DNA of 64,000 nucleotides, from NCBI GenBank assembly GCA_965223545.1, contig OZ245006.1, forward strand, positions 4,224,001 to 4,288,000. The letters run 5' to 3'. Positions within the stretch are counted from its first letter, which is position 1, and every line of letters begins with the position of its first letter. The stretch is from Planctomycetota bacterium (GTDB taxonomy: Bacteria; Planctomycetota; UBA1135; UBA2386). A program made the translations under genes and the position numbers. The notes beneath the pieces were generated by a model. The model had not been told where the DNA came from. It made no database searches and was given only the letters and a program-made list of their open reading frames with translations. This document shows, in pieces, positions 199 through 5,647 of the stretch.

Positions 199-371
199 GC
201 CTCCGGCGCCTCGAATCTTCGAGCTTCGACAACATTCTCGAGGCGACGTCGCTGCCATGGCGACAACGCCGCCGCGCCGGAGGCTCGGAGAGACAGTGCC
301 TCCTGGCTCAGCGCGGCGGCGGATGGGTCGGACCTTCCAAACCGCGCCGGCAAGAGCGGCATCCGAGTTTG
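190..371 (+). repeat. Family-A hairpin repeat, divergent copy 1, plus linker; interrupted at 371/372 by the IS110
   Basis: gcgcggtgagcc...ggctcagcgcggc ends. The linker ggcggatgggtcggaccttcca...ccggcaagagcggcatccgagtttg resembles 2456-2500 and 3744-3767. Confidence 0.8.
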
Positions 372-386
372 ATATCTCCTAAGTCA

Positions 387-392
387 TGTCAA
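387..392 (-). promoter_or_regulatory. Outward-facing -35 box (TTGACA) in the IS right end; pairs with TATGTG (2309-2304) after circularisation
   Basis: The minus-strand circle junction reads TTGACA-tgacttaggagatat|gg-TATGTG, a 17-nt spacer with TGn directly before the -10. Confidence 0.75.
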
Positions 393-434
393 GGGGTTTT
401 CGCTGGGGCTCGACATCGCGTGTGCACGGCTTGT

Positions 435-1937
435 TCAGGACTCTTCCACAAGACCAGGGAAGTGTTCTTGCATGAGATCACCGATCGGGTGAGGTTGACG
501 TGGGGATTCCACGGCCAGGCCTGTGGCGTCCATTGGGCGGCCACTCAAGTCCCTCGTCGTCGGAGTCCCCACTCGTCCCTGTCGCCGTTGGTCGCGCTCA
601 TGCCGCTGTGGCGCGACGATGCTGCGCGTGAACTTGGCTGCGATGAGCGCGCGCGCGGCAACCTTCGTGAGCTCGTTGCCGTCGGCGTCTCGCAGGACGT
701 AGCGGACTTGCGTCGACGCCGGCTTGTCATCGGCGCGCTGGCTGTCGCGACGCTTCAGGAGGGCGTAGACGCGGCGCGCCATCTTGCCAGCCAATGCGAT
801 GAGGATGAGGTTGTGGTGATCACCTGCGGCGTAGCGGCGAGCGTAGTACGCCGCGAAATCCGGATCCCACTGGCGAGCGACGTCAGCTGCTAGGTAGAGG
901 TACTTCTTGAGTACTCGTTGGCCGGTTTTGGTGATTGGCATCGAGGGGTCGCTCATGCCCGTCTGCTTCCGGCGTGGACACAGTCCGCAGTAGCTCACGA
1001 ACTTCTTGCCGTTCGAGAACCGCGCGATGTCGCCTACCAAGGCTTCGATGGCCGCAGCGATCGTGGGACCGACGCCGCGCAGTTGCTCGAGTGTTCGGTC
1101 AGGATCGACGCCCAGGTAGAGCTTCTTGATCTTTGCGTCGAGCTTGCGAACGTCCGTGTTCTTGCGCTCGATCTCATCCAGCTCGTACACCACATCCTCT
1201 TGGATGGCCTCGTAGTCGAACGGCATCTGCCCCGCAGCTCGCAGCTCAGCGTAGTACTCGGCGGCCTGTCGGCAGGACTCGAGCACGCGGTCGACCAAGC
1301 ACGGGTCATGCGTTCCCTTGGATCGCTTCGTCAAGAAGCGCTCCAAGCGACTCTTCCCAAGGCCGACCGCTTTCACCGGATCGACGTAGCGCCGCAGAAA
1401 CCCCATCTTAGCGGCACTGAACTTCTCTGCCCCCAAGGCCTTCATGAGGCTGGGATTCGCCAGTACCAGTATCGCGTGCACACGACGCTTGTGGTCGCTG
1501 AGCTCGCGCGCCAACCGCTCACGCCGCTTCACGAGTCGACGGATCGTCGTCTCGTCGGCAGTTGGAACACGCAGCTGGTGGACGCCCTTTGGATCCATCT
1601 GCGGCAGACGCGCAGCGGCCTCGGCGTCTACTACGTCGGTTTTGGTGTGCTTGCTATAGAACTTCCGCAGGTCGCTCAGCTTCTGTGGTTTGCTCACGTA
1701 GATCTGGAACCCTGCGGCGTTCACGTGCGCCGCGATGGGCAGCCACGCCAACCCCGTTGGTTCCATCACGAAGCTCACCGGACCCTCGGCACCTTCCTGT
1801 GCACGGCGCAGCAGAAGGTCAATACCCTCACGGCTGTTCTCGACTGAAAACGGTCTGCCCCGAGACTTCGCACCATCCAGAACGACGGCTCGGTGCTTGC
1901 TCCTCAAGCCGAGATCCAATCCAACGAATCGATTCAT
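435..1937 (-). CDS. IS110-family DEDD transposase/recombinase (500 aa)
   Basis: N-terminal RuvC-like motifs FVGLDLG, MEPTG and KTDVVDA. C-terminal Transposase_20 region LRGVGPTIAAAI...FVSYCGLCP...KTGQRVLKKYLYLAA...ALAGKMARRVYALL. GGAGG RBS upstream. Confidence 0.97.
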   Translation of the reverse strand: MNRFVGLDLGLRSKHRAVVLDGAKSRGRPFSVENSREGIDLLLRRAQEGAEGPVSFVMEPTGLAWLPIAAHVNAAGFQIYVSKPQKLSDLRKFYSKHTKTDVVDAEAAARLPQMDPKGVHQLRVPTADETTIRRLVKRRERLARELSDHKRRVHAILVLANPSLMKALGAEKFSAAKMGFLRRYVDPVKAVGLGKSRLERFLTKRSKGTHDPCLVDRVLESCRQAAEYYAELRAAGQMPFDYEAIQEDVVYELDEIERKNTDVRKLDAKIKKLYLGVDPDRTLEQLRGVGPTIAAAIEALVGDIARFSNGKKFVSYCGLCPRRKQTGMSDPSMPITKTGQRVLKKYLYLAADVARQWDPDFAAYYARRYAAGDHHNLILIALAGKMARRVYALLKRRDSQRADDKPASTQVRYVLRDADGNELTKVAARALIAAKFTRSIVAPQRHERDQRRQGRVGTPTTRDLSGRPMDATGLAVESPRQPHPIGDLMQEHFPGLVEES

Positions 1938-2009
1938 GTCCCCTCCATGTTCAACGAGTGAGTGTCGACGAGAGGACTCTCCCTACCCGCGCAGTCCGCC
2001 TGAGGAGGC

Positions 2010-2297
2010 GAGTCGCCAAAACGGTTCGTGTTTCGGGGCCGTGATTTCTCACGCCGCCAATCTCCTAAATCGGGTCCCCCACGCGGGAGGAGAGTCGCAG
2101 AACCAAATGAGGGGCCGCTCGAAGCGCCACCATTGCGGCAGATCGCGAAACCTCTCCGTCGCACGCCGGGGGACCCTAAGCTCTCTTGCGGCCGATGACC
2201 AGACTCCCGACACGACTCCTGCGGCTGCACCATCGCGCGAGTCTTCCACACCGCTACGGCGCGACGGGTGTGGAGAACTCTAGCTTCGCAGATCATG
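2010..2297 (-). ncRNA. Putative IS110 bridge RNA: 5' hairpin, target-binding loop and donor-binding loop (ends approximate)
   Basis: Lies in the 374-nt non-coding left end. Two analogous stem-loops (UGGnGGCG...CGGCCCC) are flanked by segments matching the target (2133-2139, 2101-2107) and the element ends (2060-2068, 2020-2031). Closing stem 2072-2080/2168-2176. 5' hairpin at about 2246-2273. Confidence 0.8.
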
Positions 2298-2311
2298 GAA
2301 CCACACATACC

Positions 2312-2526
2312 GTTGCGGCCCCGGCCGCGCTGAGCCTCGGGGGCCGAGAATGTTCGAGCGGCAACAACCTTTCGGAAGGCCCGTCGTCGCCGGGACTTCG
2401 ATACCGCAACTCCCGGAGGCTCGAAGACAACACTGGCCTCTGGGCTCAGCGCGGCGGCGGATGGGTTCGGCCTTCCAAGCTGCTCCGGCGAGAGCGGTTG
2501 GTTGCGGCCGTGGCCGCGCTGAGCTC
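2312..2526 (+). repeat. Family-A hairpin repeat copy 2 (core 2324-2455), linker and truncated start of the next unit
   Basis: 13-bp terminal IR gccgcgctgagcc/ggctcagcgcggc. Interior close to 3779-3912. Confidence 0.9.
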
Positions 2527-2859: not shown

Positions 2860-3378
2860 ATGAGCAAGCGCATTTTCGTCGGCAACCTGAATTACGACAC
2901 CACCGAGGACAACTTGGCCGCCGCCTTCGAGGGGCAGGGCTACAAGTTGGGCAGCTGTCGGATCGTCTTGGACCGTGATACCGGCCGCTCGCGCGGCTTC
3001 GCCTTCGTCGAGGTCGCCGAGGGCGTCGATGCCGACGCCGCCATGCAGGCGTTGGACGGCCACGAAGTCGACGGTCGTCCGCTCCGCGTCAACGAGGCCA
3101 CCGAACGTCCGCGCCGCGAGCGCCCCGCCTTCGGCGGTGGTGGTGGCGGCGGCGGCGGTTACGGCGGCGGCGGGGGCGGCTACGGCGGCGGCGGGGGTGG
3201 CTACGGCGGCGGCCGGCGCGGTGGTGACCGCGGTCGGCGCGGCGGCGGCCATGGCGACCGCGGTCGTCGTGGCGGCGGCGGTGGCTTCGGCGGCGGCGGT
3301 GGCGGTGGCGGCGGAGGCGGCGGTGGTCGTGGCCGCCGCGGCCGCGACGAGCACTACGACAGCCGCGAGGAGTGGTGA
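2860..3378 (+). CDS. RRM RNA-binding protein with Gly/Arg-rich tail
   Basis: RNP2 IFVGNL, RNP1 RGFAFVEV, LRVNEA, then a GGGGYGGG/RGG tail. Confidence 0.95.
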   Translation: MSKRIFVGNLNYDTTEDNLAAAFEGQGYKLGSCRIVLDRDTGRSRGFAFVEVAEGVDADAAMQALDGHEVDGRPLRVNEATERPRRERPAFGGGGGGGGGYGGGGGGYGGGGGGYGGGRRGGDRGRRGGGHGDRGRRGGGGGFGGGGGGGGGGGGGRGRRGRDEHYDSREEW

Positions 3379-3758: not shown

Positions 3759-4195
3759 CCGAGTTTGGTTGCGGCCCCGGCCGCGCTGAGCCTCAGGGTC
3801 CGCAAGTCTTCGCGCGGCAACAACCTTTCGGAAGGCTCGATGCCGCTGGAACTTCGACAACGCAGCTCCCGGAGGCTCGAAGACGACACTGGCCTCTGGG
3901 CTCAGCGCGGCCGCCGGCGACCGCGGGACCCGCGACCGACGCTCGGGTCGCGGAATGCTCCGTGTTTGGTTGCGCCCCCGGCCGCGGTGAGCCTCAGGGT
4001 CCGCAAGTCTTCGCGCGGCGACAACCTTTCGGAAGGCTCGATGCCGCTGGAACTTCGATACCGCAGCTCCCGGAGGCTCGAAGACAACACTGGCCTCTGG
4101 GCTCAGCGCGGCCGCCGGCGACCGCGGGATCCGCGACCGACGCTCGGGTCGCGGAATGCTCCGTGTTTGGTTGCGCCCCCGGCCGCGGTGAGCGT
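3759..4195 (+). repeat. Family-A tandem array with a 201-bp period (cores 3779-3912 and 3980-4113, partial third unit)
   Basis: tttggttgcg recurs at 3764, 3965 and 4166. Units are nearly identical. Linker hairpin ccgcgacc...ggtcgcgg. Confidence 0.95.
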
Positions 4196-4348
4196 GCGGT
4201 CGGGGTTCTCGAATTGAGAGCGCGTCGCTCGGCGTCGCGTCTCCGCAGCGGACCTTCCGACGACGCCGCGAGTTGACCGCCCGAGCACGGCGCGGTCCCG
4301 CGCCCGGCAGTGGTTTTTCGGCTCCGCCGTCGGTGCAGGAACCTCCGT

Positions 4349-5647
4349 ATGTGGCCGATCAGCGGGGCACGTGGAGGCGCTGTCTTGCTGTTGATCCTGA
4401 GCCCACATCGCGTCGGCGTGCGTGGCGACCGCTACGCACTGGACGCCGACCTTCATCGAGAGCTTTGTTGCTATGCCGAGCGGCTGGGGGGCGCGGTGGC
4501 GTGCCTCGCCGTCCGGGAGACCGACGATGACGGCGCCACCGACGGTGGCACCATCGTCCTCGCGCCGGCAGAGCTGCCCTACGAGCTCCGTCTCGTCGAC
4601 AGCGAGGCCGGCGGCGGGCGGAGCGAGGCGCTGCGCGCGGAGCTCGCGGGCCAACTCGAGGGTGTGACGCTGGTGGCCGGCGCGGCGACGGACGCGATGG
4701 CCGCGACCGTGTTCGAGATCGCCGGAGAACGCCAAGTGCCGTGCGTGCCGCTGGTGGACGACACGGGTGATGTGTTCGGCGGGGCTGCCGGGGTCGGAAT
4801 CGTCGGCCGCGTGCTGGGTGCGATGCGCAGTCATGCGCAGCAGCGACAAGTGCGCAAACAGCTCCGCGGTGCCGCGGCGGTCCAATGCGTCGGCTTCACC
4901 GCCCATGAGCAGTGCGTCGCTCTCAACCCCGACGCCGTGGTCGTGCTGCACTCTCGCCTGCACGCCGAAGAGGTCGTCTCCGTCGAGCGAGTGCACCGGC
5001 GCGTGGCCTCGCTGCACAACGGCCGGCGCCCGAGGCTGTTCTGGGCGGGCCATCTCGAGGAGGAGCGCGGCGTGTTGGAGATCGTCGGCCTCGCTCTCGA
5101 GCTGCGCCGGTTGGGGCAGGATTTCCGATTGCAGATCTTCGGCCGCGGCTCGCTGCGCGGCGAGATCGAGCGGCGCATCGAGCAGGAAGGCGCCCAGCGT
5201 TTCGTCGAGGTTCACGGGCCGCTGTCCTGGGCGGACCAGCGGCAGGTCATGAACCAGTCGGACCTGTCGCTCAGCTTCGGCTACGCGCCCGGCGTCGTGC
5301 GCCCGGTGCTGGAGGCGATGGGCGCGGGGTTGCCCGTCCTGGGCCCGTCCTGCGGGTCTCTGGGCCTGCTCGCCGACATGTCGTCGGCGTGTGTCGTGGT
5401 CCCGGAGGACAACGTCGCCGCCGCGGCGCGAGCGGCCCGCCGGGTGCTGCGCGACCGCAGCCGACTGCTGTCGCTGTCCCTGGCGGCCCGGCGATTCGCG
5501 GGGGCGCACTGCGCGGAGCGACAGTGGGAGCGCCGCGTGGAGCACTGGCGCCCGTTGTTGGAACGCGTGCCCGCGCCGGCCGGCGCCGGCGAGCCGTCGG
5601 CCGCCACGCCGTCGGCCGCCGCGGAGCCGGTCTCGATCGAGAGCTGA
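4349..5647 (+). CDS. GT-B (GT4-like) glycosyltransferase, divergent
   Basis: LFWAGHLEEERG, LQIFGRGSLR, VLEAMGAGLPVL. ATG at 4349 chosen from the upstream AGGA. Confidence 0.75.
   Translation: MWPISGARGGAVLLLILSPHRVGVRGDRYALDADLHRELCCYAERLGGAVACLAVRETDDDGATDGGTIVLAPAELPYELRLVDSEAGGGRSEALRAELAGQLEGVTLVAGAATDAMAATVFEIAGERQVPCVPLVDDTGDVFGGAAGVGIVGRVLGAMRSHAQQRQVRKQLRGAAAVQCVGFTAHEQCVALNPDAVVVLHSRLHAEEVVSVERVHRRVASLHNGRRPRLFWAGHLEEERGVLEIVGLALELRRLGQDFRLQIFGRGSLRGEIERRIEQEGAQRFVEVHGPLSWADQRQVMNQSDLSLSFGYAPGVVRPVLEAMGAGLPVLGPSCGSLGLLADMSSACVVVPEDNVAAAARAARRVLRDRSRLLSLSLAARRFAGAHCAERQWERRVEHWRPLLERVPAPAGAGEPSAATPSAAAEPVSIES

Follow-up and report, generated by a model that had tools for sequence, protein, structure and literature searches.

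A bridge RNA from a divergent IS110 element whose target and donor sites probably need no common core

Introduction

Does the non-coding stretch upstream of a recombinase gene in a member of the Planctomycetota encode a bridge RNA, and if so, by what rules does it pair with its target and with the ends of its own element? In IS621, cleavage is reported after position 9, the dinucleotide CT at positions 8-9 is common to target and donor, and the guides are described as pairing in a handshake (PMC11208160, PMC11208158). The stretch lies on the minus strand of a 64,000-nucleotide segment of contig OZ245006.1 (positions 4,224,001 to 4,288,000), referred to here as the window. A first-pass annotation had read positions 2010-2297 as a reprogrammable bridge RNA of a divergent IS110 lineage, with two guide loops whose likeness suggested duplication. 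The results presented here indicate that the stretch very probably encodes the bridge RNA of an IS110 element that is active and in which target and donor do not need a common core. The absent core, a pair of competing helices and a putative internal promoter were overlooked in the first-pass annotation.

Methods

The protein search returned 107 matches, 103 of them strong, and the locus scans gave 8 and 80 loci. Left ends were aligned for 41 loci, one of which is a genomic copy; L061 was removed as misaligned, and the remaining 40 contained 32 distinct RNAs. Homolog junctions were placed by end motifs, not by guides or empty sites, with four left-guide anchors and one right junction set by hand. 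The left-guide score was the best of three registers, in the permutations likewise. For the helix analysis L037 was removed as truncated. Helix pairs were picked by energy, which biases column tables toward pairing, and permutation served as the control. The distant set comprised 23 loci after removal of 9 of 32 rows (the window and 8 partial rows). Single-sequence folding hides the guides and was left out of the evidence. The DnaA-box, SD and promoter motifs follow the general consensus. Literature beyond that cited below included 10.64898/2026.08.31.748434, 10.64898/2026.10.21.760802 and 10.64898/2026.08.14.744561, each drawn on in part.

Results

The genome contains 11 identical 1940-bp copies of the element (Table 1), and a genome-wide search for partial elements and orphan RNA copies found none. 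All 11 copies are inserted at GCCGCAAC / CAAA. Unoccupied, the 12-mer is found at 95 places where 0.9 would be expected, nearly always within one dispersed repeat, which bears out the target proposed in the first-pass annotation. A joint bypassing the element was also present in a sequencing run. Comparison of the 11 junctions with the 95 empty sites reveals IS110-type insertion, site-specific and without target duplication, the latter a feature already described in the literature. The two termini are not complementary as read. The left end, which holds the RNA, is 374 bp and the right end 63 bp, which fits the IS110 group and not IS1111, since a long RNA-bearing left end and a short right end are reported to distinguish the former (PMC11208160). 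On sequence grounds, 11 identical copies imply that the element was recently active.

The dispersed repeat is palindromic, ~195 bp long (window 201-371, 2312-2525 and 3764-4190) and often tandem. It matches the genome at well over 100 places, and of 106 exact target sites 11 are occupied. The neighbors of the element, a glycine-rich RRM protein (window 2860-3378) and a group 1 glycosyltransferase (4310-5647), are without link to it. No relative was matched at E 1e-40 among 90 other genomes of the same family, many of them incomplete. Four weak Tnp-domain matches (34% over 70 aa; near 615170, 5086472, 6850307 and 7064540 of G000 C1) probably belong to a second IS110-type element.

Table 1. Features of the element and its RNA (window coordinates)
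Feature	Position	Strand	Basis and remarks
Target, right half CAAA, positions 10-13	368..371	-	11/11 copies
IS110 element	372..2311	-	1940 bp; junctions without duplicated bases; 11 identical copies, no partial copies
Left donor, positions 1-9, last bases AT	372..380	-	copies and homologs
-35 half of predicted circle-junction promoter, TTGACA	387..392	-	17 nt from -10 half once ends are joined
500-aa recombinase	435..1937	-	D8/E59/D101/D104; Thr326 at catalytic-serine position; helical insert in coiled coil; C-terminal extension of ~100 aa
Arm A', 3' strand able to close donor loop by taking B	1975..1992	-	permutation tests and folds
Right donor guide ACC + GUU	2020..2025	-	G pairs target C; donor T by wobble only
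Inner stem-loop, donor loop	2033..2059	-	compensatory changes
Left donor guide AGGAGAU, positions 1-7	2060..2066	-	homologs
Central strand B, complementary to A and A'	2072..2099	-	30 nt between loops
Right target guide, positions 13-7	2101..2107	-	homolog covariation
Inner stem-loop, target loop	2108..2132	-	compensatory changes
Left target guide GCCGCAA + U (wobble at position 9)	2132..2139	-	homolog covariation
Arm A, 5' strand closing target loop	2144..2176	-	overlaps internal -10 box; permutation tests
Putative internal promoter TGGTCA, 17 nt, TAGGGT	2173..2201	-	predicted start near 2166
Inverted pair of DnaA-box-like 9-mers (2277-2269, 2250-2242)	2242..2277	-	third copy 450-442
-10 half of predicted circle-junction promoter	2304..2309	-	joined ends
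Right donor GGT, positions 10-12	2304..2311	-	homologs; also holds -10 half of junction promoter (2309-2304)
Target, left half GCCGCAAC, positions 2-9	2312..2319	-	11/11 copies

The recombinase carries both IS110 Pfam domains (PF01548 and PF02371) and scores 208.7 bits with NCBIfam NF033542 (cut-off 140). Its DEDD motif is intact, and D8, E59, D101 and D104 are conserved among homologs. Thr326 aligns with S241 of IS621; of 65 aligned homologs, 45 have S here and 20 have T. The loss of the catalytic Ser speaks against the reading as an active element. The predicted structure (pLDDT 86.7) is best matched by ISCro4 and IS621, at an identity of ~20%. For the C-terminal extension and the helical insert (window 438-749 and 1188-1460, minus strand), no Pfam family passed the cut-off, and the matches were confined to unnamed Atlas clusters. 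Both are conserved in the clade.

The motifs on which the first-pass annotation was built are all present on the minus strand: GCCGCAA at 2139-2133, TTTGGTT at 2107-2101, and TTAGGAGAT at both 2068-2060 and 382-374. The inner stems were located at 2132-2108 and 2059-2033, and 10 of the 12 positions of 2031-2020 match the left junction, as claimed. The matches to the donor exist, but the length of both donor guides had been overstated, the homologs supporting the shorter 2066-2060 and 2025-2020. The base upstream of 2066-2060 agrees in only 7 of 28 homologs. The part of the 12-nt donor match past position 12 is unsupported: the distal ACAC has no or weak covariation; position 16 is invariant in the DNA, 17 and 18 are at chance and 15 is weak (110/5000 permutations).

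A single 7-mer is weak by itself, with a second GCCGCAA at 2192-2186. Among 20000 dinucleotide shuffles of the left end, 1 produced the ordered pair of target guides and 8 produced the 9-nt donor match. It could be argued that the guide matches are chance or relics and that the protein alone picks the repeat, given that 7-mers recur by chance in the GC-rich left end and that repeat sequence flanks both sides of 9 of the 11 insertions. This is scarcely credible. One copy with unique flanks on both sides, outside the repeat, is nevertheless inserted at the same 12-mer, and in a second copy the left flank is weakly repeated; the insertion determinant is therefore the 12-mer and not the repeat. 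Moreover, the guides shift with the targets across 27-29 elements.

This covariation between guides and flanks, named as a check in the first-pass annotation, is observed for both target guides. The left target guide matches its own flank at 6.17 of 7 positions against 3.2 when permuted (n = 29), and the right target guide at 4.26 of 5 against 1.55 (n = 27), each with 0/20000 permutations reaching the observed value. When one element per subclade was used, both guides still gave 0/50000 (n = 12 and 10). The donor guides are conserved; they covary at positions 5 and 10, more weakly at 4 and 15, and this probably reflects few events. An RNA model built on the two inner stems of the alignment fold described below had a match, at E up to 1, upstream of the recombinase gene in 39 of another 49 loci, and the guides again track the flanks, as read by eye, in 23 full-length distant loci held out from the alignment. 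Four plasmid IS110 relatives of ~30% identity were not matched by the model, and an Rfam search found nothing near the cut-off of any family. With the recombinase passing the family-model cut-off at ~20% identity to IS621 and ISCro4, and guides that covary with the flanks, the assignment to a divergent IS110 lineage is well supported: the stretch very probably encodes a genuine bridge RNA that belongs to the IS110 family but falls outside the IS621 type. The term reprogrammable finds its support in natural retargeting.

Several homologs deserve separate mention. L020 (58% identity) has an intact right end and, upstream of 1182, no RNA match; its left end seems to have been replaced by other sequence, and it was excluded from use. 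L022, L023 and L028 (54-55% identity, from other records) have the same target, GCCGCAAC followed by CAAA or CGAA, with a different guide register. The left target guide (2139-2132 in the window) stops at position 7, 8 or 9 before a conserved UGG/UGA, varying by subclade, while the left donor guide stops at 7 in all homologs. An inverted repeat of ~20 bp between left and right end, well inside the termini, was seen by eye in L075, L065, L067, L071 and relatives, which belong to the distant CT-core group.

The fold of the RNA depends on how it is computed. In single-sequence folding the loops are absent (z = -2.0) and the guides are 21-69% unpaired, whereas the fold of 31 aligned RNAs contains the two inner stems, with the same bulge geometry and double-sided changes in 14 of 18 pairs.

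The stems of the target and donor loops are alike at 11.6 of 18 positions against 6.2 after shuffling (one donor strand was extracted empty). The first-pass annotation took this likeness as a sign of loop duplication, which is plausible and probably old but supported only in part. The common stem geometry supports it, with identical bulges in both stems, as do the sequence likeness at freely covarying positions and a guide-to-UGG register that is the same in many subclades. The likeness may instead reflect the fit of both loops to the same recombinase dimer, with no duplication in this lineage, for which the chances fall somewhat short of even. The two loops of IS621 likewise have common conserved features (PMC11208160, PMC11208158), and loops of the same element are barely more alike than loops of different elements (11.6 versus 10.9 of 18, a slight excess; 87/20000).

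In all 11 copies the target has AC where the element end has AT, and the identical core dinucleotide of the IS621 type is not found. The difference is not a boundary slip because the empty site leaves no ambiguity. At the level of sequence, the missing core is established. Position 9 is discordant in 13 of the 25 elements with both ends, and 8 of those 13 are discordant at position 8 as well. The core is thus identical in 12 of 25 near homologs, compared to 15 of 15 distant relatives (12 CT, 2 GT, 1 CC). The donor has T at position 9 in 26 of 28 elements. In 28 of 29 elements the base 9 of the target is fitted by both right guides, that of the target loop and that of the donor loop, and in 31 of 32 these two guides have the same base at this position; L031 is the one element that breaks the rule. 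In 13 of 13 discordant elements the donor guide fits the target base (with one element per subclade, 11 of 12; 4/50000 permutations). A donor guide that follows target base 9 would explain why the match recorded in the first-pass annotation is to the left junction.

The agreement of the two right guides at position 9 is also what a common core predicts. It is conceivable that the core is common after all, with the circle taking base 9 from the left junction, so that the donor is AC and the T of the right junction has another origin; the spacing of the junction promoter would be blind to T versus C. However, all 11 right junctions have T and all empty targets C, an AC donor would leave AC, and there is no known source for the right-junction T. 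A hidden common core is therefore improbable, and sites that differ at the core are the preferred reading.

Joining of the element ends would create a promoter, the spacing of which is 17 nt in 25 of 26 elements, the right ends having been chosen partly by a -35-like motif. At the right end of L022, a one-base deletion in the left donor is compensated upstream, and the spacing is still 17. The circle joint was not seen in three contig sets, which drop rare forms, and this counts neither for nor against it. A second, internal promoter is suggested by a TANNNT / -10-like hexamer at the 5' tip of arm A in 23 of 31 elements, versus 6.7% of flank windows. A promoter scan of the window found no site, the internal site scoring below threshold. 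Of the 23 distant loci, 14 fit a promoter pattern at this place, and 7 have TTGAC at a distance of 17 nt, as raw counts with no background control. Native promoters inside IS110 elements are already known (PMC12288879, 10.64898/2026.03.19.712850).

The two ends are also rich in DnaA-box-like 9-mers, at 12.4 and 9.9 per kb versus 1.6 in the flanks (about 6-8x). They stand in both ends of near homologs, among them L027, L030 and L054-L058, in several as perfect TTATCCACA, and are absent from most of two subclades. These 9-mers could bind DnaA or the extra domain of the recombinase.

Strand B can pair with either arm, at -46.8 kcal/mol for A:B and -37.1 kcal/mol for B:A' in the window. Cognate pairing exceeds permuted pairing for both helices (0/20000 with 31 elements; 0/50000 with 13 subclade representatives), and the B bases used by both number 16.7 on average and at least 10. 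B:A' is strictly better than pairing with shuffled A' in only 11 of 31 elements. When the guides were forced to be single-stranded, A:B was dominant in 23 of 27 folds of the long RNA starting at the junction promoter, and B:A' in 26 of 27 folds of the short RNA starting at the internal promoter, counts that leave out 3 of 30 elements without a hexamer and include 5 weak hexamers and one mis-picked. As the start of the RNA was moved from 12 nt before the end of the -10 box to 6 nt past it, B:A' dominance rose from 3 to 22 of 22 (4 to 20 unconstrained). Shortening A must tilt the balance; the informative part is that the crossover falls inside the internal promoter region.

These folds are the basis of a tentative proposal, itself doubtful as a whole, of a two-state bridge RNA switch that is set by the start site and writes directionality into RNA folding, combined with a recombinase that joins sites with different core bases. 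In the integrated element, transcription from the internal promoter would shorten arm A, allow B:A' to form and present mainly the donor loop, leading to donor-donor copy-out. In the circle, the junction promoter would supply the full arm A, which would take B and give a target-loop RNA for insertion. The tie to excision is drawn because donor-donor complexes are reported to excise. The fold switch is a supported hypothesis.

There is about an even chance that the same bridge RNA uses B:A' for mRNA control or for processing into target-only and donor-only RNAs, while both protein-bound loops close on short stems. Arm A' lies just upstream of the ribosome-binding site and is followed in most homologs by an anti-SD-like CCUCC. 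Translation control by a 5'-UTR is known in ISPpu9 (PMC12288879), and separate loop RNAs in CazIS110-1 (10.1101/2025.10.25.684509). In addition, the two helices coexist in 7 of 27 short transcripts, each reaching 5 pairs, and in the held-out test of 23 distant relatives the long B:A' helix is unsupported (7097/20000). Short B:A' matches of 5-8 bp are visible there by eye, after the fact, and short separate stems may close the target and donor loops. Bound protein or co-transcriptional folding may also override the predicted fold energies. Against this explanation, the same B bases are used by both helices, the crossover between folds sits within the internal promoter region, and the predicted coupling to SD access was not found. 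Indeed, a translation switch with the SD open in the target state was rejected as unsupported and weakly opposite to the data (4 for, 11 against).

Discussion

The evidence is best explained by a bridge RNA that lets a recombinase join sites whose core bases differ. On loop 1, a dimer of the recombinase would locate the 12-mer GCCGCAACCAAA in the dispersed genomic repeat, while a dimer on loop 2 would hold the joined element ends. The top strands would be cut after position 9 and swapped, each junction retaining its own top-strand positions 1-9. RNA binding, the cut position and top-strand transfer are taken by analogy from IS621 and from CazIS110-1, for which top-strand transfer is reported as shown (10.1101/2025.10.25.684509). 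If the top strands carry positions 1-9 into each junction, identity of target and donor is unneeded, and such inheritance would explain the junctions without a common core. The donor would keep T9, and on retargeting both right guides would change to base 9 of the target. If the donor guide follows the target, exchange would leave the count of base pairs unchanged, which carries the handshake logic of IS621 on to position 9; with one good pair made ahead of strand exchange and another following it, a locked complex would be avoided. The promoters, the circle and the reason for the position-9 rule are what we infer from these patterns.

The closest described systems are IS621 and ISCro4/IS622, which likewise have a DEDD + Tnp recombinase, an RNA in the long left end with the target loop before the donor loop, four guides, a junction promoter, here a predicted one, insertion into dispersed repeats and a right donor guide that fits the left junction (PMC11208160, PMC11208158, PMC13626964, 10.1101/2025.05.14.653916). 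As those sources describe them, identical cores are used and programmed there, whereas none is common here. The recombinase described here shares only ~20% identity with theirs, has 500 aa versus about 326 and has Thr at the serine position; in addition, long closing helices compete for one strand and there is a putative second promoter. CazIS110-1 is also a multi-copy IS110 element, in which top-strand transfer of the kind that would explain the present junctions operates and separate target-only and donor-only RNAs exist (10.1101/2025.10.25.684509). Its available main text does not contain the word "core", and a competing helix or promoter-linked fold is not described there.

The ISEc21 seekRNA resembles what is predicted for the present RNA in that an upstream non-coding RNA guides insertion, abutted ends form a promoter and the target is not duplicated (PMC11187229). 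It differs in an apparent duplication, one copy of which is placed inside the element, whereas here the crossover base differs between target and end. ISPpu9 and ISPpu10 are like the present element, with its putative promoters, in that they target repeats (REP) and carry native promoters within their own sequence; in ISPpu10 a junction promoter exists besides the native one (PMC12288879, 10.64898/2026.03.19.712850). Their cores are common (AG, CT), and promoter-dependent refolding of guide loops is not described in the parts of these sources that were available. TIGR-Tas and box C/D (Nop5) systems share a related RNA-binding fold and paired short guides (10.1101/2024.06.21.599552). TIGR-Tas was rejected as an identity for the locus, whose protein scores 31.6 bits against a cut-off of 100 and which has one RNA match per element and no repeat array, and behaves as a mobile element. 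TIGR-Tas reportedly consists of a Tas protein with a tandem guide array.

In the IS110 literature, covered mostly at the level of titles and abstracts and in part of the main texts, no description was found of cores that differ in nature, of a switch between folds, of a promoter for the bridge RNA inside the element, of DnaA boxes at the ends of IS110 elements or of duplicated loops; this clade could be among the 86 RNA models or in Fig. S12 of the Evo-PIN preprint, or in Fig. 6d of PMC11208160. Core-less elements may be under-counted because one recent survey, according to the part of it available, imposes a common core or drops elements without precise ends.

Bridge recombinases are being made into genome-writing tools, and current designs are reported to need identical donor and target cores. 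With a natural clade that accepts unlike bases at positions 8 and 9, the choice of site pairs open to joining would become wider. The fold switch, if real, would be a new answer to how IS110 elements choose between excision and insertion and would guide the choice by engineers of the 5' and 3' ends of the RNA. Finally, the clade offers a way to probe if the mechanism itself requires a core or if the core simply follows from the pairing of the guides.
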